Source: Pachysolen tannophilus NRRL Y-2460 (Eukaryota). From it: a stretch of DNA of 64,000 nucleotides. Positions 7,073 through 60,117 of the stretch are shown here, one piece after another. The stretch is taken from NCBI GenBank assembly GCA_001661245.1, contig KV454013.1:331005-395004 (forward strand), in the 5' to 3' direction. The position numbers and the translations under genes were made by a program. The notes under the pieces are model-generated. The model was not told where the DNA came from, did not search any database, and saw nothing but the letters and a program-made list of their open reading frames with translations. Every line of letters starts with the position of its first letter. The first letter of the stretch is position 1.

Positions 7073-9199
7073 TTACCAAACTTGAATTTGATCAAATAAT
7101 TCAACAGTGTTTTTTGTCTTGGTGATATTTTGAGTAACAGCATATCTTACATCGTCTGTAAAGTTGACATGAGCACATGTAACAAAGGCAACTGAGCCGT
7201 TTGCACTTGTGATTTCTTCTTGTACGAGTTCGTCAAGATTTGGTCTAGATTCTCTAAATTCAACAAACGGTAATCTAGCTTTCAATTGCAGAACAGAATC
7301 AACTTCTTTAGTTTCCATTAAATCTGATGTTTTTTCATCTGAATCAGACGCCCCGTTGGAGTCTGAGGAAGTATTAGGTAAAGATAAACCGTCAACTTCG
7401 TTAGGACGTGTCACGTATACAACAACTTGAGCTTTAGTATCTTTGAAATTTGATAATTCTTCAAAAAACCAATCAAAAGATTTCCAATGACGAATTGCCC
7501 AGTAAAATTTAACTTCTTGTCCCTCAATATTTTGACGAATCAATGACATTGCTTCAGCATATAAACCTGGAACACCGTTACCACTTGAGACGAAAACAGC
7601 TTTCTTAAATCTATGGACTGGTGCAACTGAACCATATGGACCATCAATTGAGACTCTAATCTTAGCACTCTTTGAAGACTGTTTTTGTAAATATTTGAAT
7701 AAACTATTTGTGATACCACCCTTTAATTTGACGTAAAAGGAAACAGTACCATCACCTTCAACTGAATCGACAACGGTGAAAGGATGTGATTGCCAGAAAC
7801 ATGATTTGCGTACAAAGGTGATAAATGCATGTTGACCTGGTGCAGCCTTCCAGTACTTTGGTTTTGGAATAGTGATCTTTAATGTTTCATCAGCTTTTAA
7901 TGAGACATCTGCTAATGGGAATCCAAAAGCAATAAGTCTGCAGACTCTAACAACTCTGTCAAAACCCCAAACGGCAACAGCAGCGTAATAATACTGCCCG
8001 TAACCTTCTGCATGAGTGTGAACCCAACCACCAGCGATGAAGAAAGCGGCAAGAGTAAGATGCAACAGGAAGAAAATTTCATAACTTCTCTTTCTGAAAA
8101 ATAATAATGCCTGAACCATAATGACACCACCAGCACATGTAGCAATAATTCCCCATTTGACAAAAGATTCTTGATTACGAGATACAACCTGACCTGCTGA
8201 AACACCATTACATGTCATAGCAACGGCATGAATAAATACAAAGATAAAAGCTGTTCTTGCAACCCATCTGTGGAAGGCTAACATTCTAGCAAAATTCCAA
8301 CGAGTGAAAAATTGTAAGAAATTATTTCTTCCAGCAAATAATACCAATAATGGCATCAAGAAAAGTGACATAACACCTGATCTATCAGCGACATAACGTC
8401 CAATTTGTCCTTCTTCCCCAGTCCAAAATGCGTTTGGATAAATAAAATGATAATTACTTGTTAAGAAAGCAATATTTAAAACCATAAATATACCAATAAG
8501 AATTGAATCCAAACGTGTCGGTACTAACCACTCAAATATAATCAAAAATCTTTTGTTAACATTGTGAGCACGACGACCAGCAGCTGCTAAACAAATGTAT
8601 CTTTGCCATAACTTGGAAACACAATTATTATTAAGATTTGGGAAAAAGTACAAGATCCAATTGATTATTGAAGCACCAATCATAACCAGCATCCAGTATG
8701 CAAGCAATGCAGTTCCATAATAAATAGATCTATTGTAATTCAAATAACGACCTTTATATGAGTCAAAATACATTTCTGCCTTTTTCTTAGTCAAAGTGAC
8801 TGGACTATAAGAAATTGCAGTTGAATTAAAATCATCAGCAGTTGGATCAACAAAATAATTTGTAGCATTTTCATATGCAGCATAAAATTCGTCTAAAGTT
8901 AATTCAACATCAGCTTCGGACTCACATTGTTCCAAGAAATAATTGATCTTTGATGTAGAGTTTGATAAACCGACAATATAACATTCGGCCATCGTTCCCA
9001 AAGCAGGTATTGTAGCACAAAGACATTTATATCCCGAAGTTTCACAAAAAGTAGCAGTTTTTTGAATATATCTGGCACAAGCCTCTTCTGCTAATTCATT
9101 TGAAGTATATTTGGTCCAACCATTATCACCAGAAGCATTAACAACTTCAAAAGAAGTTAGACAGGCCAATGCCAACGAAGCTAGACTGAACAGACGCAT
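7073..9199 (-). CDS. Plasma-membrane ferric/cupric reductase (FRE/CFL family)
   Basis: Signal peptide, Cys-rich N-terminal domain, heme-binding TM helices (FHRWVAR, H...H), FAD motif QSHPFT and NADPH motifs DGPYG and G.GVPG. Confidence 0.95.
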   Translation of the reverse strand: MRLFSLASLALACLTSFEVVNASGDNGWTKYTSNELAEEACARYIQKTATFCETSGYKCLCATIPALGTMAECYIVGLSNSTSKINYFLEQCESEADVELTLDEFYAAYENATNYFVDPTADDFNSTAISYSPVTLTKKKAEMYFDSYKGRYLNYNRSIYYGTALLAYWMLVMIGASIINWILYFFPNLNNNCVSKLWQRYICLAAAGRRAHNVNKRFLIIFEWLVPTRLDSILIGIFMVLNIAFLTSNYHFIYPNAFWTGEEGQIGRYVADRSGVMSLFLMPLLVLFAGRNNFLQFFTRWNFARMLAFHRWVARTAFIFVFIHAVAMTCNGVSAGQVVSRNQESFVKWGIIATCAGGVIMVQALLFFRKRSYEIFFLLHLTLAAFFIAGGWVHTHAEGYGQYYYAAVAVWGFDRVVRVCRLIAFGFPLADVSLKADETLKITIPKPKYWKAAPGQHAFITFVRKSCFWQSHPFTVVDSVEGDGTVSFYVKLKGGITNSLFKYLQKQSSKSAKIRVSIDGPYGSVAPVHRFKKAVFVSSGNGVPGLYAEAMSLIRQNIEGQEVKFYWAIRHWKSFDWFFEELSNFKDTKAQVVVYVTRPNEVDGLSLPNTSSDSNGASDSDEKTSDLMETKEVDSVLQLKARLPFVEFRESRPNLDELVQEEITSANGSVAFVTCAHVNFTDDVRYAVTQNITKTKNTVELFDQIQVW

Positions 9200-11290
9200 A
9201 TTGTGATAACCACTAATGATTTGAACCTTTACAGAAGAAGAAGAAAAAAAAAAGAAAAAGGAAAAAGGAACTTATTATTCAAAGAGTGAATACTTCCATC
9301 TATTTATATACAGACAAAAAAAAAAAGGTTTTTTATTTTTTTTTTTGTCTTGGACTGTTGCTTGAAAAGCCAACATTCAAATGCACAAAAATTTTTCAGG
9401 TACTTGATTCTGAAAATGAGAGAGTAGATGTCACTTTACTTCAAAGGCCTTATCTCATCATATAATAATATTTTAATGCTCCCCTTCACTAAACCCTCGG
9501 AACCGATTACCCTAGTGAAGACTAAGTGAAAACACATATATTTAAAAAACCTGAATGGCTCAATCCTTCAAATTTGATGGTTGATATGTCATTAGTTTTG
9601 GTTCAAAGACCCGAGAATTGGTGAATAATTTTGATTTACGCTATTTTTTTTTTTTTTTTCGAATTCTTACATACCGCTTATAAAATAAAGTTGCATTGCA
9701 TCAACCCTTATGCATGAACAGTACAGAAAAAATAAAAATTTTTATCTCAACCATCAGTACAGTTCTCGACTCAACAGAATTAAAATATTCCCCTGGAAAA
9801 TTTTTTATCCTCAAGCCTCTAAAAGGTACTCAACATAAAACATGAAACAGGGCAGTAACAAGTGTTTTAAAAATTAAAATAAAAAAAAAATATTGAAACA
9901 CCTTTGTTTTTAGTGTTGAATTAAATCAAGTCCAATCAGGTCACTTTTCAGTTTATTGTATTTTGTGTTTTTAACTAAGGAAGAAAGAAATAGTGTATCT
10001 GCAGTAGTTGATATCAAAAAAAAGAAAAGAAAGAGAAAAAAAAACTATCAGTTCTTATGTAGCCAAGTGTTTAATACCCTCGGGCTTTGAACAATGAAGA
10101 TGGTAGGTAGATCAAAATAACTTCTTTAAGAATATGAACCAAAAAAATGTAAAATACATTATACTATTATTACAACTGTTGACAAAAAACAAAAAAATTT
10201 CCTTTTATGGATTTATAGGACCGTACATCTTGCATCTTACATTATAATACCGTATTTAATCTCAAAAATCCTTTTAACAAATAGTAATACTGAATTGAAT
10301 TGAATTGGACTGAACTGAACTTTACTGATCCAATTGGACATTGAGTTTTAATGCTTATTTGAAAACTCAGATTTTTTAGTTCAATTTAATCTCATGTTCA
10401 TATCAGTTGCTAAATTGTTTTAAAATTAAATTCTAATCTTTTTGTTAGGACACTATTTATTTAAGGAAGAAAAAAAAAATAACATTCACGCATAAAAGTC
10501 TTAGAATAAAGCCCTGAACGCGTAGGTTTTTTTCTTAAAAAAACTTTTTTTTTTTGTCATGGCTTTTCTTTCAACAATTTATCTCAAAGATCAATGCACT
10601 GCAGAAATAGTAGTCGCCTCCTACCCTGTAAAAATTTAAATTTGAAGCCAAAAAAAGCATTTACTATTATATGTAATGAGGTGAAGCTTTTATGATGCAC
10701 GTATCACTATAATCAAAATATGACATCAATAAAGAAGCAGAAAACGCTCCGAGACATTTGTAAATTCTCATTGTCTATTGCTTTCCTTCTTTCGTTTGTG
10801 TGCTTAGAGCTGCTTGACTGTTGCAAAATGATTTGCCAACGTTATATTATTTTTTCGTTTTTTTTTTCAATTTAGGATCCTCAACTAAAATGTTATACGA
10901 GATTTAGGCATAAAAGATTAAATGTATAAGGATTTGCGGAAGAAAAGAAAAAAATTTTGATCGTCATACTTGATGTGTGTAATTTCGCTAAATTTCCTAA
11001 ATATAAAGTGACAAAACTATTGAAAGCTTATTTTTTGTAGTGCGTTGGCATTATTATTATTATTTTTATTATTAGTAAAGAAGCATGAAAAATTTCTACT
11101 GGTGGAAAAATAAAATACTTAAAGTTTGAAAGGTTTTGAATCTACATTACCGCATTCACTACTACATTTTTGACTAGTCAGTCTAAATTAGATCTTTTAG
11201 ATTATATACTAATTTTCTACCCTACTTTAAGTGAAAGTGAAAGTGAAAGAAAAAAAAAATTTTTTTTTGGCTTTTTTTTATTTCTTATTA

Positions 11291-12187
11291 TTATTCTTTT
11301 ATGAAAAGTGACGCAGCACCCATACCAGTTCCGATACACATACTAACAACACCAAACTCACCTTCTTTTAATTCCCTCATTAAAGTTGCAACCTGTCTTG
11401 CACCTGTGCAACCCAATGGGTGACCCAAGGCTATAGCTCCTCCTCTAGGGTTAACTTTATTTAAATCCAAGCCCAATTTTTCAATACAGTAAATACATTG
11501 ACCAGCAAAGGCTTCATTAATTTCGAAAAAAGTTATATCATTCTTGCACAATCCAATTTTTTTCAATAATGAAGGAATGGCATAAGCTGGTCCAACCCCC
11601 ATTATCTCAGGTGGGACTCCAACAACTGATGTGGCAACGTATTTCCCCAAGATGGGCAAATTCAATTCATTTGCCATTTTTCTTGTACATAGTAAGCATA
11701 AAGAGGCACCATCGGATATTTGGGAAGCATTACCAGCATGTGTAGTGCCATTAAACGATGATTTTAATTTGGATAAGGATTCAGAAGTGACATTGGGCCT
11801 TGGGCCTTCATCTTTGGAAACTAGAATTTTTTTAACTTCATGTTTCCCATTGGAGGTTCCTTCTCCTTTTTCATCATCGTCTTCATCATCATCATCTTCT
11901 TCTTCCTGGTTTTGGGTGATTTCAATTGGTAAAATTTCGTCTTTAAATAAATTTTGTTTAACTGCCCTTTCAGCTTTTTGATACGATAACGCAGCAAAAT
12001 TATCTTGCTTTTGTCTAGAAATTTGAAAATTCTTGCTGACATTTTCATTTGTAATACCCATTGGTATTAAACATTTAGATCCCTGTGAATCTTGTTTAAT
12101 ATCATGAGAAAGTTTTGGAACTGCTTTTGGGCCATAATTGGAACTCATACTTTCAACACCTCCTGCTAAACCACAATCAATTTGTCC
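11291..12187 (-). pseudogene. POT1: 3-ketoacyl-CoA thiolase POT1, C-terminal half (GQIDCGLAGGVESM... to stop)
   Basis: Thiolase motifs GGVESM, MGITNENV, GNASQISDGA, FEINEAFA, GGAIALGHPLG and SMCIGTG. Homology extends 13 codons upstream of the ATG at 12148 to 12187. Three unrelated codons and in-frame TGA TAA precede it. Confidence 0.9.
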
Positions 12188-12493
12188 AAAGGTGTTTTAT
12201 CAGTGGACACTTCAAAGAATTAGTAGTTAATCATAAATAAATCATTATCATATATATATTTATTTTTCTGGTTTTTCCTTTTTTTTTTTTTTTTTTTTTT
12301 TTAGTTTACAGAAACCGTTATCATTAACTTCCCCGCCTAATCATCATTTATCGAAAGATCAGGTTTGCTCAGTTCTGAAACATATATAATTGAAATTAAA
12401 TATCATTATTTGGAACGAATTTTTGGCTATAATTTTTTTTTTCTATATTATAATTAGAAAAAAAAAATAAAGAAAAATAAAGTTTAAGTAGAT

Positions 12494-12910
12494 ATGAATC
12501 GTTTGTTACAGGTTAATTCTCATTTAACAAATCCTGGAGCTGCAGATGTGCGTACCAAAAATGATGGAGATGTTGTTATCATTGCCTCATATAGAACTCC
12601 TATTGCTAAAGGTGGGAAAGGTTCTTTTAAAGACATGAACTCTGACGAGTTATTATACAAATTTACTAAAGAGTTTATTAAGAAATTGCCTCCTCAATTT
12701 GATTTGAGAAAAATTGAAGATGTAGTTATTGGGAATGTATTGAATCATGGTGCAGGTGCCATTGAACATCGCGCTGCTCTTTTAAGTGCTGGTTTAGATT
12801 CTTCAATTCCGTTTATGGCTATTAATAGGCAATGTTCTTCTGGGTTAATGGCTATAAATGATATTGCTAATAAGATTATTAGTCATTCTGTTCAAACAAC
12901 TGTAACTTGA
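12494..12910 (+). pseudogene. POT1: 3-ketoacyl-CoA thiolase POT1, N-terminal half (homology ends at 12883, then an 8-codon unrelated tail)
   Basis: PTS2 signal RL-x5-HL (MNRLLQVNSHL), DVVII..YRTPI.KGGKGSFKD and the catalytic Cys motif NRQCSSGL. Homology stops at ANKIIS. Confidence 0.9.
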
Positions 12911-13242
12911 TAATATCGATTGATGCTTTTCTTAATAGAAATGATTGCTTAATAAAAGTTTAACAGCCAAAAAAAAGAAAAAAAACGGAGAAGAAATTTA
13001 GTTTCCGAAAAACTTTAAAACTTCTCCACTTTTGACTACAATTCTCCTTCGCGGATATTGTTTTTTTTGATTTTATTATTTTTGAAACAAAAGAAGATCT
13101 AAACAAAGTAAACTTTAACATTGGTACTTAATAGTCTAATGAAGTTGAAGACAACGACTTTGGATTTAACCCAAACCAGAATTTGAAAATTGCCATCTCA
13201 GGCCTAGTTGAGGTTTCAGCGCTTAGTTTCTAGTTCTCAGAA

Positions 13243-16200
13243 ATGAGTGAGAATAATAGCGTGGATTCGTTAAAAGAGCTGCTGATCGATGCAAGCATTG
13301 ATTTGGAATCCACTTCAACGGAGAGATCATCAAAGAGTAAAATATTTAAAAATATCAAGAGAGTATTTAGGTCTTCGGATAGTGGTAATGCTGAAGATAT
13401 GACTAGAAGTAGAAATGCTTCAGGCGCTTTTTCATCAAATGGTGGTGGTCCTGGCAGTGCTGCTGGCGGAGCTGCTGCTTGTGATAGTACATCTAATCTG
13501 GATGATTCAGATCAAAAAATTATCACTTTCACTGAGGAAGATGATTTAGGAAATGACTCTGACTTAAGCGATATGAATATTAATAACAAAATTTTGTTGA
13601 ATCCAAAGAAAAGAAGTGTGTCTCTGCAGCGACTGCTGCAGATGCTGCCTCATATACATTTGGGACAAAACGAAGATACAGAAGATGATCTAGGAAGAGT
13701 GGTGAGTATTGGTTTAGATTTGGCAGGCAAAGGTTTATCTAGTGATGATTTGAAAAATCCATTTTCTTCAGTAGGAATTCAAAGTCATAAGTATGGAAAT
13801 AATGCTCAAGATTCTGTTATTTCATTTTACAGTGAAGGTACAATAACTGATTCAGAAACTTCAAATAGTTATTCGAGAAAACCTTCATTAACTAGAAGTG
13901 CTTCAATGATTTTTGGGAAAAAATCGCCAAAACCAATCTCTCCTGTGATTCCTTCTCCTACTTTTAAATCTTTAGAAGATAACAATACTTGGTCAAAATT
14001 GAAAAAATCTAGAAATATAACACCACCAATGCCTTCTATTTCTAAAGTTAATAGCTTATTTGAACAATTCTTGGTAAAAAGAAAATATACAATGGAAGCA
14101 AGGTTAAGAATGAATGAGTTAGATCCAGCGAAAAAATGGGAAATTCTTTACAAAAGCAATGGTAGTAATACAGATGATTCTACAAGTAGTAATAAAAACG
14201 AATACATGAAAAGAGGATTAAACATTCCATCACCAGTTGTTAAATTAAAAGAAAATTCTCCAAAGTGGTTTGTCTCAAAGTTAATCACAAATGAACTATC
14301 TTTAAAACAATTCCAAAGTTTATCAAAATATTTGAAAAAAAATATGGAATTTGTTAAAAATTTCATTTTGCTTCAAGGTACTATTGCACTTTGTATCACT
14401 TTGCAAAATATAAATAAACGTTCAATAAAGTCCAATGAGCAGTTAGATAAAGAATTCATAATAGTAACATGTTTAAAAGATATAATAAATTATAAAGAAG
14501 GTGCAGATTCGGTTTTTGAACTTCCGCGTTGTATTCATGGTTTAGTGTTAAGTTTAGTTTCCCCAAGATTATCAACTAGGATACAAGTTTCCGAGATCTT
14601 AATGCTTTTAACTTATTGGAGAGTTCCATTGGGACGCAAGACTATCTTAGAAGGTTTAGCACTAGTTCAAGATAGATTGGGAGATTTTAATAAGTTTGAA
14701 CCATGGTTAAGAATTGTCGACGAAAGTTTGAATGGGAAAGGTATTATGGGAAATTTAATCAGTAATGGTGACTATAGCAAGATTGGATACAAGTTGGAAA
14801 CCACTTTAAAGGATTACTCGTTGGTAACCTTATTTTTAGTTAACGCTTTATTGGAAAGTTTTGAAGATTATACTGAAAGGTTGCAGATAAGAGAGAGCTT
14901 TAATCAGTCTGGCATATTGAGTATTTTTAATAAGATGAAATTACTAAAATGCGGTTTGATAAATGAACAGATAGAAAAATACGAAGATTTTAGTAACGAA
15001 GATTTCGATGATGTTATTCATTCCAAAGACAATGGAATTGAGCCAAAAGAAGTTGTCACGTTCAAAGATCTTGAAGAGTTGATTAATGATGTTTTTTTGG
15101 AAAGATTGAAAAATTACCAAGATCATGCGGAAATTCTAAGACATTTGCATCTGATAGTGAATAACCTTAGTTTGGTGCTAAGTTCAAAAGATTTGGATGT
15201 TTCACCTACAGATAATGCTATCAAATATTTTAAAGTCATAGATGCAATATTGACACACATAGTCAAGGAATCATCTAGGGTCGGCGAGAATCCTTCAACT
15301 GTGTTGAACATGACCTTACAGCGGTTAATGGATAAATTAACAACCGAAGAAATCGCTAGAAAGGCCATAGTTGAGTCTCAAAATTTATCTAGAACATTGA
15401 AAAACCTTCTTGTAGAAAATGACGAATTGAAGGCAACAATAGAGTTGGGAAGTGATGGTATGATAAATAGGTTACAAAGAGAAATCAAATTATTAGCTGA
15501 TAAATCACATACACAAGAAAAGCAATTATTATTATATCAAACTAAGTTTAGAAATTTATTGGATGAGAGAGAAATTGATAAGGTAAAATTTGAAAGAGCA
15601 TCATCAGAAAGAGCATCATCAGAAAGAGTATCATCAAAATCATATAGTGGAGGTACAAACGATAGTAGTAGTACTCAAACACAGGATCCAATCAAGGGAA
15701 TCAATAATCAAAATTTTATGCTGTCTAACGCTTCCCACTTTGATATATTTAGCGGTTTATTTGCTAAAAGTGATAGTACCGAAAATAATGTTGTATCAGT
15801 TAATGATAATGATTTAGGAATCAGTACTAACTTTACTACTACTCATAATACTCAGTTAAATGAAGCAAAAGATGTTGAACAGATGGAGGCCTGGTGGGGA
15901 TCAAACAGCCATGAAAAATATGCCAACATTACCAGTATACATCCGAAGTTGCCTCCAAAAAGCGTAGGAGCTTCTAATGAAAGTGAAGTTGAAGGAAATT
16001 GTAATGTTAGCGCCCAACATGAAAATAAACCACTTTGTAAAGTTGGTATTGCTAAGAATAACGATTTAATTTTGAAGGAAGATTATAATCAAACTGATGA
16101 AACTCCTATTTATACTGAAGAACTGGGTATATATTCAGGATTGTCGCAGTCAGATGCAAAAGAGGAGTGTTTGGGAGAAACTTCAACGGAAATGCATTCC

Positions 16201-18876: not shown

Positions 18877-20382
18877 CTAATATTCACCACCTTCAACTTC
18901 ATCTTCAAATGAATCTGCTCCAACTTCTAAGTAATCTTGTTCCAAAGCTGCTAAATCTTCTCTAGCTTCAGTAAATTCACCTTCTTCCATACCTTCACCA
19001 ACGTACCAGTGAACAAAAGCTCTTTTCTTGTACATCAAATCGAATTTAGAATTGATATGAGACCAAGCAGTTGAAATAGCAGTAGTATTTGATAAAGCAC
19101 AAACAGCTCTTGAACTTGCAGCCATATCTCCATCTGGTACAAAAGTTGGTGGTTGATAACAAATACCAATTTTAAAACCTGTTGGACACCAATCAACCAA
19201 TTGAACTGTTTTTTTGGATTTAATGTTTGCAACAGCTTTTTGAACATCTCTATTGACTACATCACCACGGTATAATAAACAAGTAGCCATATATTTACCA
19301 GCTCTTGGATCACATTTAACCATTTGATTTCCTGGTTCAAAACAAGCAGTAGTAATTTCACTAACTGAGTTAGATTCATGATTTGATTTTGATTTTGATG
19401 AAACTGGAGCATAAGAGACCAATGGGAAATGAATTCTTGGGTATGGAACTAAATTTGTTTGAAATTCATTTAAATCAACATTTAAAGAACCATCAAATCT
19501 TAAAGAAGCAGTAACTGAAGAAACAACTTGAGCAATTAATTTATTTAAATTATCTAAACTTGGTCTTGGAATATCCAAATTTTTACGACACATATCATAG
19601 ATTGCTTCATTATCAACCATAAAAGTACAATCTGCATGTTCTAAAGTTGTATGAGTTGTTAAAACAGTATTATAAGGTTCAACAACAGAAGTTGAAACTC
19701 TAGGACCTGGATAAACTGCAAATTCTAATTTAGATTTTTTACCATAATCAATAGAGAGTTGTTCTAATAATAAAGATCCAAAACCTGAACCAGTACCACC
19801 ACCTAAAGAATGACTAAAGATAAAACCTTGTAAACCATCACATTGATCTGACATTTTTCTTAATCTTTCTAAAGTATCATCAATTAATTCTCTTCCAACA
19901 GTATAATGACCTCTTGCATAATTATTTGCTGCATCTTCTTTACCACTAATAAGTTGTTCTGGATGGAATAAATTCTTGTATTTACCAGTTCTAACTTCGT
20001 CAATAACATTTGGTTCTAAATCAACATATAATGCTCTTGGAACATATTTACCTGAACCAGTTTCACTGAAAAAAGTTGAAAATCCTTCTTCACCACCTTT
20101 TGGCTTTGTAAGACCTTCTTGTAAATACCCATCTGACGTGATACCATGCTCCAAGGAGTACAACTCCCAGCAAGCATTACCGATTTGACAACCAGCTTGA
20201 CCGACTAAAATAAAAATAAAAAATTTAAAAGAAATAACGCGTTAATATATATATATATATATATATAAAGATCAAAATTTATCATAACATCTTGTGATCC
20301 AATAACCACAAATCTATCAATCAAAAAAAAAAAAATAATAAACGGCGCTTAACTTACTGTTGACGCTGATAACTTCTCTCAT
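18877..20382 (-). CDS. TUB1: Alpha-tubulin, 2 exons (20382..20358 and 20204..18877), 450 aa
   Basis: Exon 1 encodes MREVISVN and is followed by a GTAAGT donor at 20357. A TAG acceptor at 20205 gives [23 protein letters not shown] motif and C-terminal EY are present. Confidence 0.97.
20205..20357 (-). other. Spliceosomal intron of TUB1 (153 nt)
   Basis: GTAAGT donor, probable variant branch point TATTAAC (20247..20241) and TAG acceptor. Splicing restores the frame. Confidence 0.93.
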
Positions 20383-28877: not shown

Positions 28878-29525
28878 NNNNNNNNNNNNNNNNNNNNNNN
28901 NNNNNNNNNNNNNNNNNNNNNNNNNNNNNNNNNNNNNNNNNNNNNNNNNNNNNNNNNNNNNNNNNNNNNNNNNNNNNNNNNNNNNNNNNNNNNNNNNNNN
29001 NNNNNNNNNNNNNNNNNNNNNNNNNNNNNNNNNNNNNNNNNNNNNNNNNNNNNNNNNNNNNNNNNNNNNNNNNNNNNNNNNNNNNNNNNNNNNNNNNNNN
29101 NNNNNNNNNNNNNNNNNNNNNNNNNNNNNNNNNNNNNNNNNNNNNNNNNNNNNNNNNNNNNNNNNNNNNNNNNNNNNNNNNNNNNNNNNNNNNNNNNNNN
29201 NNNNNNNNNNNNNNNNNNNNNNNNNNNNNNNNNNNNNNNNNNNNNNNNNNNNNNNNNNNNNNNNNNNNNNNNNNNNNNNNNNNNNNNNNNNNNNNNNNNN
29301 NNNNNNNNNNNNNNNNNNNNNNNNNNNNNNNNNNNNNNNNNNNNNNNNNNNNNNNNNNNNNNNNNNNNNNNNNNNNNNNNNNNNNNNNNNNNNNNNNNNN
29401 NNNNNNNNNNNNNNNNNNNNNNNNNNNNNNNNNNNNNNNNNNNNNNNNNNNNNNNNNNNNNNNNNNNNNNNNNNNNNNNNNNNNNNNNNNNNNNNNNNNN
29501 NNNNNNNNNNNNNNNNNNNNNNNNN
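28878..29525. other. Assembly gap (N run) flanked by poly-T
   Basis: Run of n characters. Confidence 1.
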
Positions 29526-33271: not shown

Positions 33272-33792
33272 TTTATCAATTAACCAATTGTTTAATTTTT
33301 ACCATTAATTTTAACCACTGCTGTAACAATTGTATAAAAAAGTTTCTAGACATTATGTTTTTTTTTCTTTCTTTTTTACGATGCTTTTTTTTTATATTAC
33401 TTTATTCACTTGATACATTTTTGCATGCTTTATATTGTTTTGGTTTTGACTTCTTTATTTATGTATTTATTATTTTTTATATTTTATTTTTGGAAAACCG
33501 GTTTTGGTAGAACGGTTATTTGAGCTATAGTTATTCATATTTTCAGGCTTTGGTTTTGATTTTTTCTTTAGAACCATTATTTTAATAAAAATTTATATAT
33601 TTTTTACCTTAATTTTAGATCAGATTTTGTATTTTTTCAAGTTTTTATGCACTTGGTGAAGAAAACTAGTGGAAAATTAGATTTTTCAAAAAAAATGATA
33701 ATTTGGACAAATAATATTATATATTATATATAGTACCACTATATCTATATAAATTATCGAATCTTCAAAGTAGTAGACTCAATTGATCAAAA

Positions 33793-34786
33793 ATGTTAAT
33801 AACTGAATCTTATCATGATGTTAAATCTACCCTGGGTACAACTATGAGGATTTATATTTTCCATCCAAAGATCACTGGTTATCCACAAGCTAAGTTTCCA
33901 GGTGTTGTTGTATATTCAGAAATATACCAAGTAACCGGACCAGTTGCCAGATTTGCCAAGGATATTGCTTCTCGTGGTTACATTGTTCTGGCTCCTTCAA
34001 TTTATCATAATTTTGAAGGTAAGTGAAAATTAATATGAATTTTAGTTTTCTTAATTTTACCCTTCATACTTACTAACGACTTTTATCTGCTATGATAATA
34101 ACTAGGTCCTGAACCTTTAAACTATGATACCGAGGGAACTGACAAAGGTAATCTTTATAAGATCACCAAACCTCTTGACTCCTATGATGAGGATAACAAG
34201 TTGACAATTGATTATTTGAGTTCTTTACCAACTTGTACTCAAAAAATTGCAGCTACTGGCATGTGTCTTGTAAGTATTTTTTTTTTTTTATGGCAAAAAA
34301 ATAATTCATTTTGCGAAATCATTTCTTCTTCTCTAGCAATAATTTCTAACAACTCAATATAATTAGGGAGGTCATTTGGCATTCAGAGCATGTCTAGATA
34401 AGCGTGTTAAAGCTTCCGTATGTTTCTTCCCAACAGATATACATGACCATGCATTGGGAAAAGGAGGAGATGATTCTCTAGCAAGGTCCAAAGAAATGTC
34501 TCATGCTGAGATTATCTTAATCTTTGGAACTTTAGATAATCATGTTCCTCCTGAAGGAAGAGACTTGATAAGATCCACATTGAGAAATAACAACATAGGT
34601 TTCACATTCATGGAAATTAACGGCGCCCAACATGCTTTTGTCAGAGATGAATCAAGCAAAGACAGATACGACGGTGCAATTACAGCAAGCTGCTTCGAGT
34701 TCTTATTCGAATTATTCGATAGAATCTTAAAACCCGATCTTGGCGAACATGATGGTAAGAAGATAGTGGTTGAAAACGTCTGCTAA
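33793..34786 (+). CDS. Dienelactone hydrolase family protein, 3 exons (33793..34018, 34106..34269, 34367..34786), 269 aa
   Basis: Two GTAAGT...TAG introns with branch points TACTAAC (34071) and TTCTAAC (34344). The spliced product has SEIYQVTGP, nucleophile motif GMCLGG, D.HVP and AQHAF. Confidence 0.93.
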
Positions 34787-35111
34787 CCAACAAGTTGTCA
34801 ATCTATAATTTTTCACCTACAGTTCCGAATCGGGAAGCTGCAGCAGCCAATTGGTTGCGGCTTTCCTGCCATGCAAGAGCTTCCTAAAGAGGAAACTCGA
34901 ATTTTTCAATGTAAGAAAAGCAGCGTATCCGCTATCTATTGGATAATGGATAAGAACTGGCGCATCGAAGATATATCTTAAATTTGCAAGTATGGTATAT
35001 AAAGCTGAGTTGCTTTTCTTGTCTCTTTATTTTTTCTTTTAGTTTTTTGTGTTTTCAGTTTTAGTATTTAGTAGATAATAGAAGTTGTTCTAGTCTTATT
35101 GTTTATTGATA

Positions 35112-37100
35112 ATGCAACAAGTTATCCACCCTTTTGACTCTATAAGAGAAGGCGAGTTTAGGCTTGCAACTAAATTGATTAAAGATGCTTACCTTGGTGA
35201 GAAAGTTCATTTTGTCCAAGTTGATAGGGCCGAACCTCCTAAGCAAGATACATTAAGGTACCTTGCAGCAGAAAGAGAAGGCTTACCGTTACCAAGAATT
35301 CCAAGAATTGTGTACCTCTATTATTATACAAATGAAGGTAAAAGATTCCATAAAGCTTTGGTTAATGTTAGTGTTGGTCACATTATTACCAAGACCCAAT
35401 TACCAAAAGGTGTCGTTGGTCCATTATTACCTGAAGATTTGGGTGAGGTTGAAAAACTTTGTGTTGAGCATCCTCTTGTTAAAGCTGAAATTGCAAAATT
35501 GAAATTACCAAAAGGTGTTTATGTTCAAAATGATCCATGGATGTATGGTACAGATGAATCAAATGAAGATCTTCAGTTAATTCAATGTTATATGTACTTG
35601 CGTTATGACCATCCGGAATCAAACCATTATTCTTTGCCTTTAAAATTTTCACCAGTATTTGAATCTTTTAGTCACAAATTTGTTAGAATGGATTATTTAC
35701 CTGGAGGTTATGATGAAAGAATTACTTTAACTGAACCATGGAAACAAGTTCCAGCTGTTGAATTTCATCCTGATTTAAATGGTGAGCATACTATGAGAAT
35801 TCCTAAACCTTTAATAATTCAACAACCTGAAGGTCCAGGTTTCACTTCCAAGAATGGTGCAGTTGAATGGCAAGGTTGGAAATTTAGAGTTGCTTCAAAC
35901 GTCAGAGAAGGTTTTGCAGTTTACGATGTCTCTTTCAAAGGTAGATCCATTGCTTATAGAATCTCTTTATCTGAAATGACAGTTCCTTATGGTGATCCAA
36001 GAGCTCCATACCATAGAAAGCAGGCTTTTGATTTAGGTGATTGTGGGTTTGGTGCTAATGCAAATCATTTGAAATTAGGTTGTGATTGTCTTGGTTATAT
36101 CAAATATCTTGATACAATTAGAACCAATGGAGAAGGTGAACCAATCTTACTTCCAAATACTATCTGTATGCATGAGCAAGATAATGGTATTTTATACAAA
36201 CATGTCAATTATAGAACAAATAATGCTGTAATTGCAAGAAGACGTGAATTTGTTGTTCAAACCATTGCAACAGTTGCCAATTATGAATATATTGTTAATA
36301 TAATTTTTGATCAAGCTGGTCTGATTTGTATTCAAGTTAGAGCCACTGGTATTTTGTCAACTATGCCAATAGATGACGGTGTTACCGTTGATTATGGAAC
36401 CAATGTTGGGCCAAATGTTATGGCTGCATTCCATCAACATTTGCTTTCTTTCAGAATTGATCCAGCTGTTGATGGCCATAAAAACACTGTTGTATATGAT
36501 GATGTTTACCCAATGGAACCAAATACATCTTTGAATCCACATAATGTCGGATTTTATTCTAAAAGAACTGTCTTGGAAAAATCAGGTTCTGTTGAACAAT
36601 CACCTTTTACTAACCGTGCTTATAAAATCATCAACGAGAATGTTATTAATCCAGTCAGTAAAAAACCTGTTGGTTATAAGATTGAAATGCCTGCAAGACA
36701 ATTGGCATTAGCTTCAGAAAATTCTTACAACGTACATCGTGCTAAATTTGCTACAAAACAATTATGGGTTACTAAATACAGAGACGGTCAATTATATGCT
36801 GCTGGTGAGTTTACAAATCAATCAAGAAACGATACAGGTCTTGGAGAATGGGCCAATGGACAAGATTTAGTTAGAAACGAGGATATTGTTGTCTGGGCAA
36901 CATTAGGTTTCACACATGTTCCAAGAACAGAAGATTTCCCAGTTATGCCAGTTGAGATTCACAATATAAATATTGTTCCATTTGGTTTCTTTACCAAGAA
37001 TCCAGCTTTAGACTTGCCGCAATCAAACAATAGAGACAATCAATCGGTTTTGGTCAACGAAGATTCAACAGGACCATCATGTTGTAAAAGTTCTTTATAA
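35112..37100 (+). CDS. Copper-containing amine oxidase, probably peroxisomal
   Basis: TPQ consensus ANYEY, Cu ligands HQH and H in FTHVPR, catalytic Asp in AFDLGD, and a PTS1-like SSL C-terminus. First ATG is at 35112. Confidence 0.95.
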   Translation: MQQVIHPFDSIREGEFRLATKLIKDAYLGEKVHFVQVDRAEPPKQDTLRYLAAEREGLPLPRIPRIVYLYYYTNEGKRFHKALVNVSVGHIITKTQLPKGVVGPLLPEDLGEVEKLCVEHPLVKAEIAKLKLPKGVYVQNDPWMYGTDESNEDLQLIQCYMYLRYDHPESNHYSLPLKFSPVFESFSHKFVRMDYLPGGYDERITLTEPWKQVPAVEFHPDLNGEHTMRIPKPLIIQQPEGPGFTSKNGAVEWQGWKFRVASNVREGFAVYDVSFKGRSIAYRISLSEMTVPYGDPRAPYHRKQAFDLGDCGFGANANHLKLGCDCLGYIKYLDTIRTNGEGEPILLPNTICMHEQDNGILYKHVNYRTNNAVIARRREFVVQTIATVANYEYIVNIIFDQAGLICIQVRATGILSTMPIDDGVTVDYGTNVGPNVMAAFHQHLLSFRIDPAVDGHKNTVVYDDVYPMEPNTSLNPHNVGFYSKRTVLEKSGSVEQSPFTNRAYKIINENVINPVSKKPVGYKIEMPARQLALASENSYNVHRAKFATKQLWVTKYRDGQLYAAGEFTNQSRNDTGLGEWANGQDLVRNEDIVVWATLGFTHVPRTEDFPVMPVEIHNINIVPFGFFTKNPALDLPQSNNRDNQSVLVNEDSTGPSCCKSSL

Positions 37101-50397: not shown

Positions 50398-51714
50398 TTA
50401 AATTCTAAATGATTTATGGAAATCTTTTCCTGCATAAATAGCTTTTGATCCCAATTGCTCTTCAATTCTTAAAAGTTGATTTAATTTGGCTAATCTTTCA
50501 GATCTAGCTGGAGCACCTGTCTTGATTTGACCAGCTCTTAAACCGACAGATAAATCAGCAATAAAAGCATCTTCAGTTTCACCAGATCTGTGAGATACCA
50601 TAACACCCCAACCGGCAGCGTATGAATCTTTTGCAGCATTGATTGACTCGGACAAGGTACCAATTTGGTTAACTTTTAATAACAATGCATTGGCAGCTTT
50701 TTTTTGAATAGCAGTCTTAATTCTTTGAGTGTTGGTGACAGTTAAGTCATCTGCAACAATTTGGAATCCAGTGTCTATCTTGGAAACAAGACTAGACCAT
50801 GATTCCCAGTCATCTTCAGCAAATGGATCTTCAATTGAAACAATTGGGTACTCTTTTATCAATTCGATATACAACGAAGCTAATTCAGATCCAGTTAACC
50901 ATTTTGATTTATCAGAGTTTGGATTCTTGAAATCTAAATCATATTTACCATCCTTATAGAATTCTGACGAAGCTGCATCTAAAGCAATACTAATTCTACC
51001 TTCATAACCTGCTTGTTTAATGGCTGTATAAATTAAATCCAAAGCTTCCTTCAGAGTAGTAATATCTGGAGCAACACCACCTTCATCACCAACATTACCT
51101 GCAGATTGACCGTACAATTTCTTAGCCAATGATTTTAAAGTATGGTAAACTTCTGAACCAATTCTTAAAGCTTCACTGAAACTTGGAGCATCTGTTGGAA
51201 CAATCATAAATTCTTGGAATGCTAAAGCACCACCAGCATGGGAACCACCATTAAGAACGTTTTGGAATGGAACTGGTAAAACGTATGGTTCTGGGGATTT
51301 AGCTAATGAAGCAACGTGTTGATATAATGGAACACCTTTTTCAGCAGCAGCAGCCTTAGCAACAGCTAAGGAAACACCCAAGATAGCATTGGCTCCTAAT
51401 TTAGATTTATTTGGAGTACCGTCCAATTTTAAAAGGAAATCGTCAACAGCAGCCTGGTCCTTAACATCAAGGTTAGCCTTAACTAAAGATGGAGCAATAA
51501 TCTCATTAACATTAGCAACAGCTTTCAAGACACCTTTACCTAACCATTTCGATTTGTCACCATCTCTCAATTCCAAAGCCTCATGAATACCAGTTGAAGC
51601 ACCAGATGGAACAATAGTTCTAAAGAGACCTTTCTCTGTATGAAGATCAACTTCTACTGTAGGATTACCCCTCGAATCGTAAATATAACGAGCAAAAATT
51701 TTTTCAATCGCCAT
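50398..51714 (-). CDS. ENO: Enolase, tandem paralogue B (more divergent copy)
   Basis: Full-length 438 aa with [28 protein letters not shown] and SHRSGET. Confidence 0.97.
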
Positions 51715-52585
51715 TTGTCAATTTTAAATTCAATATCTCCTTTTTCAAAAGAAAAAAAAATTTTTTTTGTGTAAGAAGATATTCAATTCAATTTATACTT
51801 TAATGATATATGGGTCCTATAGCAACATTGGCAGAACTTTTCTTTTTTTTTTTAGGGAGAAAGGAGAGCAATAAAAACCTAACATTTGGCAAACCTTTTT
51901 TTTTTTCTCTCTCTTTCTTTCTTTCTGAAGAATAACCTTTCAACCTTCGAAAATGTTAGATCAGCATAGTAACTAGTACAAGTTTTGATGCAAGGCTACA
52001 TACAAACTCTCGGAATAATGTTCATGTATGTCAATTGTCTTAATTGAATTATCATGCTTGGATAATCTAACGTTGAAAATCGTTATAAAATCTTAAGCTT
52101 TTTAATTCTACCAAGTTAGGAAAACCCATAAATTTTTTTTTGAAATTCCTAGCTTTCTTTCTAGGTTTTATTTAAAGCATCAATGAATCCCAGTGAAGAT
52201 AGATTTTGATCAAAATTAGTAGCCTTTCATCAGTATCTTCACCATAGGTTAGATGGAAAACTTTAAAATGGGTTTAAGACTGCATAAAATCTCGGGAAGT
52301 TTCCTCTTATGGAAGTTATGGTTTTAACGCACTACTGATGCTGAATTTTTCAATTGAAATTGAATGGAAATTCGGAATAAAGAGGAGAGGAGGGTATACT
52401 AGAAACAACTTGATAAATTGAGTTTATGTGTTAAGTCAATTAGATATCATAAAATACTAAAAGATTATATATATATTTAAAAAAAGTCAATTAGGAAACA
52501 GTGAATCAGAAAAAAAAAAAAACATAACAAAACAAAACAAACAAAAACAATGAGTCTTTTTTTTCATAATCAAAAGTCATTTTAT

Positions 52586-53902
52586 TTAGATTGCAACTGA
52601 TTTGTGGAAGTCTTTACCGGCATAGACAGCTTTGCTACCTAATTCTTCTTCGATTCTTAAGATTTGGTTTAACTTAGCTAATCTTTCAGATCTTGCTGGG
52701 GCACCGGTCTTAATTTGACCAGCTCTTAAACCAACAGATAAATCAGCAATAAAAGTATCTTCAGTTTCACCAGATCTGTGAGATACCATAACACCCCAAC
52801 CGGCAGCGTATGAATCTTTTGCGGCATTGATTGATTCGGACAAGGTACCGATTTGGTTAACTTTTAATAACAATGCATTAGCAGCCTTCTTTTGAATAGC
52901 AGTCTTAATTCTAATTGGGTTAGTAACGGTTAAATCATCACCAACAATTTGTAAACGGGAACCTTCTTTCTCGTAAAAGTGGACCCAAGCTTCCCAATCA
53001 TCTTCAGCAAATGGATCTTCAATTGAAACAATTGGGTATTCTTTGATCAATTGACCATATAATGAGGCTAACTGAGGTCCAGTTAACCATTTTGATTTAT
53101 CAGAGTTTGGATTCTTGAAATCTAAATCGTATTTACCATCCTTGTAAAATTCTGATGATGCAACATCCAAAGCAATACCAACACGACCTTCATAACCTGC
53201 TTGTTTAATAGCAGTGTTAACTAAATCCAAAGCTTCTTTTGGAGTAGCAATATCTGGAGCAACACCACCTTCATCACCAACGTTACCTGCAGATTGACCG
53301 TATAATTTCTTAGCCAATGATTTTAAAGTGTGGTAAACTTCTGAACCAATTCTTAAAGCTTCACTGAAACTTGGAGCATCTGTTGGAACAATCATGAATT
53401 CTTGGAATGCTAAAGCACCACCAGCATGGGAACCACCATTAAGAACATTTTGGAATGGAACAGGTAAAACGTATGGTTCTGGGGATTTAGCCAATGAAGC
53501 AATGTGTTGATACAATGGAACACCCTTTTCAGCGGCAGCAGCCTTAGCAACAGCTAAGGAAACACCCAAGATAGCATTGGCTCCTAATTTAGATTTATTT
53601 GGAGTACCATCTAATTTTAAAAGGAAATCATCAACAGCAGCTTGATTTTTAACATCAAGGTTAGCCTTAACAACAGCTGGAGCAATGATTTCATTAACAT
53701 TAGCAACAGCTTTTAAGACACCTTTACCTTGCCATTTTGACTTATCACCATCTCTCAATTCCAATGCTTCATGAATACCAGTTGAAGCACCAGATGGAAC
53801 AATAGATCTGAAAAGACCCTTTTCAGTGTGGAGATCAACTTCTACAGTTGGATTACCTCTTGAATCATAAACGTAACGAGCAAATACTTTTTGAATAGCC
53901 AT
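52586..53902 (-). CDS. ENO1: Enolase, tandem paralogue A
   Basis: Full-length 438 aa with all enolase signature motifs. It has a long upstream region with a TATA-like element. Confidence 0.97.
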
Positions 53903-54298
53903 TGTGAATTAATTTATTTATATAGAAATTATTAATTAATAATATTATTATTATTATAATAATTATTATTAAATCTAAATTACGGTTAAAGTATAATTTT
54001 ATTAAAAGGAGGTGGATCTTCCCCTTTATATATGCTTTTGAAAAAAAATTGATGCTTCAACGAGAAAATAGACATTAACCTTTTTTTTTTTCTTTCTTTT
54101 TCCCTCATCTTTCTCATCCTCTCCCCTTTCACCGCCCAATTCCTTAATTTTCTCAGACCGCCCTCCGCCAAACAAGCGGGCGGAAAACTTCTTTCCACCG
54201 CGAACGACATGTTAAGTTTACTTAAAAAAACGGCGAGTGACATTGTCAACTGATGACGAAAAATTAAAAAATTAAAAAAAGTACCAAAAATTACCAGC

Positions 54299-59600: not shown

Positions 59601-59654
<54 letters not shown>

Positions 59655-60117
59655 NNNNNNNNNNNNNNNNNNNNNNNNNNNNNNNNNNNNNNNNNNNNNN
59701 NNNNNNNNNNNNNNNNNNNNNNNNNNNNNNNNNNNNNNNNNNNNNNNNNNNNNNNNNNNNNNNNNNNNNNNNNNNNNNNNNNNNNNNNNNNNNNNNNNNN
59801 NNNNNNNNNNNNNNNNNNNNNNNNNNNNNNNNNNNNNNNNNNNNNNNNNNNNNNNNNNNNNNNNNNNNNNNNNNNNNNNNNNNNNNNNNNNNNNNNNNNN
59901 NNNNNNNNNNNNNNNNNNNNNNNNNNNNNNNNNNNNNNNNNNNNNNNNNNNNNNNNNNNNNNNNNNNNNNNNNNNNNNNNNNNNNNNNNNNNNNNNNNNN
60001 NNNNNNNNNNNNNNNNNNNNNNNNNNNNNNNNNNNNNNNNNNNNNNNNNNNNNNNNNNNNNNNNNNNNNNNNNNNNNNNNNNNNNNNNNNNNNNNNNNNN
60101 NNNNNNNNNNNNNNNNN
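59655..60117. other. Assembly gap (N run) after a long poly-A
   Basis: Run of n characters. Confidence 1.

Follow-up and report, generated by a model that had tools for sequence, protein, structure and literature searches.

The question raised by this locus is whether a gene that the public sequence presents in two pieces is also in two pieces in the organism. The window, i.e. the whole stretch of DNA that was analysed, comprises 64,000 nucleotides of Pachysolen tannophilus NRRL Y-2460 (assembly GCA_001661245.1, contig KV454013.1, positions 331,005 to 395,004). Within it, a POT1/FOX3-like thiolase gene is found in the deposited sequence as two colinear halves on opposite strands, each in its own stop-to-stop ORF under the standard code (140 aa at 12488..12910 on the + strand and 301 aa at 11291..12196 on the - strand). 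The features on which the argument turns are the following, with positions counted from the first letter of the window.

12494..12883, + strand: N-half, the first 130 thiolase codons, with a PTS2-like N-terminus and the first catalytic Cys (NRQCSSGL).
11291..12187, - strand: C-half, the last 298 codons (12187..11294) and the stop codon (11291..11293), with the His, the second Cys and an acidic loop insertion.
12188..12883, no strand assigned: inverted segment of 696 bases, found in the opposite orientation in contigs of four public runs.
12188..12493, + strand: promoter-proximal part that moves with the N-half, 306 bases, A/T-rich, with a run of 24 T at 12279..12302.
12884..12910, + strand: read-through tail of the N-half, eight codons and a stop codon (12908..12910), non-thiolase sequence.
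12884..13242, no strand assigned: rest of the thiolase/formin intergenic region, with a CGG-N16-CCG palindrome at 12986..13007; it sits upstream of the thiolase promoter segment once the gene is intact.

On the + strand the N-half runs up to 12883 and ends with GCT AAT AAG ATT ATT AGT (ANKIIS), while on the - strand the C-half starts from 12187 with GGA CAA ATT GAT TGT (GQIDC), the sequences and strands being those given in an earlier, sequence-only reading of the locus. That reading had also claimed that flipping the segment would rebuild the gene, and a script that took the reverse complement of 12188..12883 indeed joined the halves in frame, with no base gained or lost, into a single 428-aa ATG-to-stop frame. 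The ORF translations bear out the further claim that neither half contains an internal stop or a frameshift. Colinearity with yeast Pot1, likewise asserted, is apparent from alignments to solved structures. Residues 22-128 of the N-half correspond to chain residues 4-112 of 1pxt_A (7-115 of 1afw_A), and the C-half, whose residue 1 corresponds to chain residue 115, spans 1pxt_A 115-390. The two alignments to 1pxt_A leave only chain positions 113-114 between them, which N-half residues 129-130 fill, and the join is thus accurate to the single residue. That two complementary halves of a single enzyme should fit together seamlessly from opposite strands is far beyond chance, and the earlier observation of the split is confirmed.

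Domain and homology searches converge on the identity of this enzyme. In Pfam, the N-half matches profile positions 1-100 of the 260 in Thiolase_N (E 1.5e-25), and the C-half matches positions 102-259 of the same profile (E 9.2e-39) and positions 2-121 of the 123 in Thiolase_C (E 5.9e-46). The matches of the two halves are thus complementary with nothing missing, and the flip restores the full Thiolase_N to Thiolase_C order. The best solved matches are 1afw_A for the N-half (E 5.3e-35) and 1pxt_A for the C-half (E 9e-106). For both halves, acetoacetyl-CoA thiolases score far below the yeast peroxisomal thiolase, and in the C-half they match at E 1e-50 or weaker, compared with 9e-106. Among named proteins, the nearest are 3-ketoacyl-CoA thiolases from Komagataella phaffii (63%) and Candida boidinii (62%); over the C-half, named yeast thiolases reach no more than about 60-63% identity. 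Beyond the window's own fragment, the top match of the C-half is a Logan protein with 67% identity. No intact, 100%-identical thiolase is present in the large protein collection that was searched, which shows only the absence of another annotated assembly of the species there.

The S. cerevisiae enzyme Pot1/Fox3 (1AFW, 1PXT) has the same domain order, catalytic stretches and PTS2-like N-terminus as the protein rebuilt here. The NRQCSSGL, GGAIALGHPLGCTGARQ and SMCIGTGMGAA stretches contain residues identical to those of 1afw_A and 1pxt_A in the alignments, in agreement with the earlier statement that the enzyme retains its catalytic Cys (the acyl acceptor), its His and its second Cys; these roles follow the literature on 1AFW. 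The N-terminus reads R-L-x-x-V-x-x-H-L, the same pattern as in the K. phaffii protein, and presumably fits the PTS2 nonapeptide consensus, which would make it a candidate targeting signal on the strength of its pattern. Unlike the protein described here, the S. cerevisiae enzyme lacks an acidic insertion between C-half residues 91 and 124: this Glu/Asp-rich stretch covers residues ~92-123 (window 11820..11920, - strand), where S. cerevisiae has few residues, and similar acidic inserts are found in K. phaffii and in Logan-derived thiolase relatives. Since the thiolase gene has no CTG codon, a possible reassignment of CUG would be without effect on its product. Taken at the level of its sequence, this is an ordinary POT1/FOX3 orthologue, predicted to encode the peroxisomal 3-ketoacyl-CoA thiolase, the enzyme of the final step of peroxisomal beta-oxidation.

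A flip that is base-perfect and falls at a codon boundary invites the suspicion that it was put into the window in silico, after download, and would be absent from public records, a variant that the sequence-only reading had entertained. An exact look-up in NCBI, UniRef and nr returned both fragment products, on one record of 1,751,653 bases. The 138-aa product on this record consists of the N-half followed by the 8-residue tail read across 12883/12884, while the 285-aa product opens with the first ATG that the C-half frame offers past the 12187/12188 junction. Since both fragment proteins are on the public record, the flip was already in the deposit before the window was taken from it, and later alteration of the sequence is the least credible of the explanations considered here. 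The window contains two runs of N, at 28878..29525 (648 bases) and 59655..60117 (463 bases), both adjoining long A or T homopolymers of up to 53 A (59602..59654), and these gaps identify it as part of a gapped scaffold draft rather than finished sequence.

Whether the deposit reflects the genome was addressed with read-derived contigs. A run search returned seven public runs, of which five hold the stretch (word share 0.95 each; two samples, two studies). Four were compared with the window as Logan contigs, over 3,401 bases around the thiolase: X1, X2 and X4 share a sample and a study, X5 belongs to the second sample and study, and together they may or may not include the reads behind the deposited assembly. 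In all four, the segment is reversed relative to the window, the gene is intact and both junctions are bridged. One contig in each run passes from 12314..12882 (+) straight into 12188 (12187 in X5)..11303 (-), with more than 255 letters on either side of the joint. A second contig, again in each run, passes from 12240..12188 (-) into 12884..14200 (+), its shorter side measuring 52-53 letters. The opposite-strand joints connect 12187/12188 with 12882/12883 and 12188/12189 with 12883/12884 (X1, X2, X4 and X5). Among the contig pieces listed for these four runs, none crosses the window's 12187/12188 or 12883/12884 on one strand, and positions 12241..12313 are uncovered, Logan contigs breaking in this A/T-rich part.

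The intact gene is therefore present in the DNA of both samples, and these contigs exclude a fixed pseudogene or a species-wide inactivation. Contig ends at the breakpoints, which would be expected of mixed orientations, were found in none of the four runs, and no run holds a mixture of orientations at substantial frequency; Logan contigs drop rare variants, so that a minor flipped sub-population could escape them. The sequence-only reading had proposed an orientation check across both junctions and had taken support for the intact orientation alone as the sign of an artefact. Carried out on contigs rather than reads, this check returned only the intact form (four of four runs), which by that standard points to an artefact of assembly.

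Outside the flip, deposit and runs are nearly indistinguishable. In the flanks, 11303..12188 and 12884..14200, not one letter differs between window and runs, and the sole further differences in the 3,401 bases are a T after 10857, TTT after 12432 and a minor change at 12456-12457 together with one A. These three sites are all of A/T low complexity, and at each of them all four runs agree against the window. By our own arithmetic, the two junctions and the three sites disturb ~5% of 31-letter words, which accounts for the word share of 0.95 and implies that nothing else differs. This near-identity indicates that the deposit and the runs are from the same strain or nearly so. The deposit is the outlier at each discrepancy and is locally imperfect in low-complexity DNA.

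The explanation that we favour, with a probability of roughly 70%, is that POT1 is intact and that the inversion is an assembly or finishing artefact private to the deposit. According to this scenario, an AT-rich budding yeast would possess one intact POT1/FOX3 gene on the - strand, and a 696-base piece of it would have been set in reverse-complement orientation within a gapped scaffold draft, making the flip a property of the deposited assembly and no state of the genome. The 138-aa and 285-aa fragment proteins would then probably be spurious. Two features of the locus are those expected of such an origin. A computational reverse-complement of a piece, or of a gap patch, would preserve every base, as this flip does, and halves that are free of defects, with a coding sequence identical to that of the runs, are what one would see had no cell ever carried the break. 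Draft assemblies are known to suffer from inversion misjoins, a class of error set out by GAGE-B (PMC3702249). By the definition given there, the left and right pieces of such a misjoin align to the same locus on different strands, which is the situation seen here, although the present piece, at 696 bases, is below the 1000-base reporting limit of that evaluation (PMC3702249). A Pfam scan of the window's 27 other large ORFs revealed no further gene divided between strands.

The artefact explanation nevertheless has its difficulties. Scaffolding errors do not usually look like this flip, which has neither Ns at its joins nor repeats bounding it, and both breakpoints fall within unique sequence through which other assemblies run smoothly. 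An ordinary scaffolding or repeat-induced error does not readily account for this flip, nor does any one step of the pipeline stand out as its origin. The evidence consists of contigs, which do not by themselves prove the absence of the split form from cultures. Moreover, an inversion made by two breaks and precisely repaired would look identical in the deposit.

This last point leads to the main competitor, in which the clone or stock whose DNA went into the deposit had undergone a real and very recent inversion, by precise two-break rejoining or by template switch, that inactivated POT1 there and nowhere else. The same clean junctions without Ns, and the same unique sequence, in which assemblers rarely err, speak for this possibility. 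The lack of decay in either half would fit a very recent event, and the single base of microhomology at the breakpoints is compatible with end joining. This base, reported earlier as 1 bp of inverted microhomology, was recovered in the contig comparison as a breakpoint ambiguity of one base (A at 12188, T at 12883); it is not meaningful, since at the local composition ~0.29 of random base pairs would give the same complementarity (own arithmetic). A repeat-free inversion without the loss of a single base is a rare event. The split form was seen in none of the four runs from two samples, and the identity of 3.4 kb outside homopolymers would confine the inversion to one laboratory lineage. Since deposit and runs are otherwise of the same strain or nearly so, an independent natural inversion is improbable, and the deposit contains other local errors in low-complexity DNA. 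On balance, an inversion private to one clone is unlikely, if a good deal easier to entertain than the remaining biological alternative, and the cause is most likely the assembly process.

The remaining biological alternative is that the segment inverts reversibly and so switches beta-oxidation, which would be 'off' in the deposit and 'on' in the public runs. In favour of this, the flip loses no base and keeps the reading frame, and public data contain each orientation, one in the deposit and the other in the runs. The segment also includes promoter-proximal DNA and the gene's 5' half, and expression would therefore depend on which way it points. Bacterial phase-variation invertons use site-specific recombinases, and the yeast flip-flops cited next span many kilobases. 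In the accounts of the inversions themselves, MAT switching in Ogataea polymorpha inverts the DNA between inverted repeats (PMC4238957), invertible systems that recombine between inverted repeats are also described elsewhere (PMC6692504; PMC9731477), and the latter source presents a 24-kb flip/flop on chromosome XIV of Saccharomyces (PMC9731477). Like the flip-flops and invertons, the present case has a DNA segment found in two orientations, and expression of a gene depends on which of them is present. In contrast to them, it has no repeats, no recombinase is seen and no run holds both orientations.

The search for repeats was made with an inverted-pair search of 11000..14000, which found no inverted repeat with arms at 12188 and 12883. 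The longest 25 of the 515 weak inverted pairs in this interval are all of A/T low complexity and lie away from the breakpoints. The low-complexity pairs at 12255..12302 and 12969..13000 are off the breakpoints, and recombination between them would invert another interval. Inverted repeats as the cause of the flip were accordingly rejected, no pair being located at the breakpoints. The Pfam scan of 27 large ORFs in the window gave no recombinase, integrase or transposase domain. In each of the four runs, contigs read through the junctions with no ends of the kind that a branch point would produce, and in the nearest relatives the gene is simple and intact. A regulated switch is thus very improbable, and just as improbable would be a repeat-independent, base-perfect eukaryotic metabolic 'inverton' of the sole peroxisomal thiolase gene, with a mechanism unlike that of known flip-flops. 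Among the three options that the sequence-only reading had left open, local misassembly therefore gains from the intact arrangement in the contigs of four runs, whereas the regulated switch loses for want of repeats, of a mixture of orientations and of a recombinase.

If the assembly-artefact explanation is right, a public annotated yeast genome probably has a local orientation error that hides an intact POT1, and annotation-based surveys of the loss of beta-oxidation genes would wrongly score this species as POT1-defective. Had the split been biological, it would have provided a striking example of gene inactivation or switching via a repeat-free micro-inversion; the evidence says that it is most likely not real biology, and what remains of use is that the assembly and its annotation can probably be corrected. 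The lesson is a practical one: where flipping restores a split gene perfectly, the arrangement should be compared with reads before any interpretation is placed on it.

In its intact arrangement the thiolase gene (- strand) is divergent from a gene encoding a 1,748-aa formin (ATG at 13243; FH2, GBD and FH3 domains), with ~665 bases between them. Downstream of the thiolase, ~2 kb without large ORFs precede a ferric reductase gene (7076..9271, - strand). The CGG-N16-CCG palindrome in the thiolase/formin intergenic region is the kind of site that zinc-cluster regulators bind; it lies ~100 bases past the right breakpoint and ~410-430 bases upstream of the intact thiolase ATG, and it carries no weight in the argument. 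The oleate response element consensus has no match in the window, and CCTCGG is absent from the thiolase upstream region. Scans for tRNA genes and Rfam families across the window returned nothing.

Some features of other genes in the window deserve mention in their own right. A dienelactone-hydrolase-family gene at 33787..34783 (+) is spread over three frames (33787..34026, 34102..about 34270 and 34367..34783) and is best read as three exons and two short introns rather than as a broken gene. Its half-length match at 34367..34783, the only one of that kind among the 27 ORFs, had been considered as a possible second flipped gene and was rejected, the exons being on one strand. A tubulin frame at 18880..20241 (-), which we take to be of the alpha type by its start residues, has no ATG near its beginning, and a short exon further upstream probably supplies its first codons. 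A tandem pair of full-length enolase genes is found on one strand, at 50401..51717 (-) and 52589..53908 (-), with frames of 439 and 440 aa that both carry Enolase_N and Enolase_C, an arrangement that looks like a local gene duplication. Codon 222 of the first of these enolases is CTG in a column where solved homologues have Pro, and codon 410 of a copper amine oxidase gene (35094..37097) is CTG where solved homologues have Glu/Ala; in neither of these conserved enzymes is the residue Leu. CTG represents 59 of the 1,099 Leu-family codons in 14 ORFs, and a reassigned CUG codon in this yeast lineage is possible judging by these columns.
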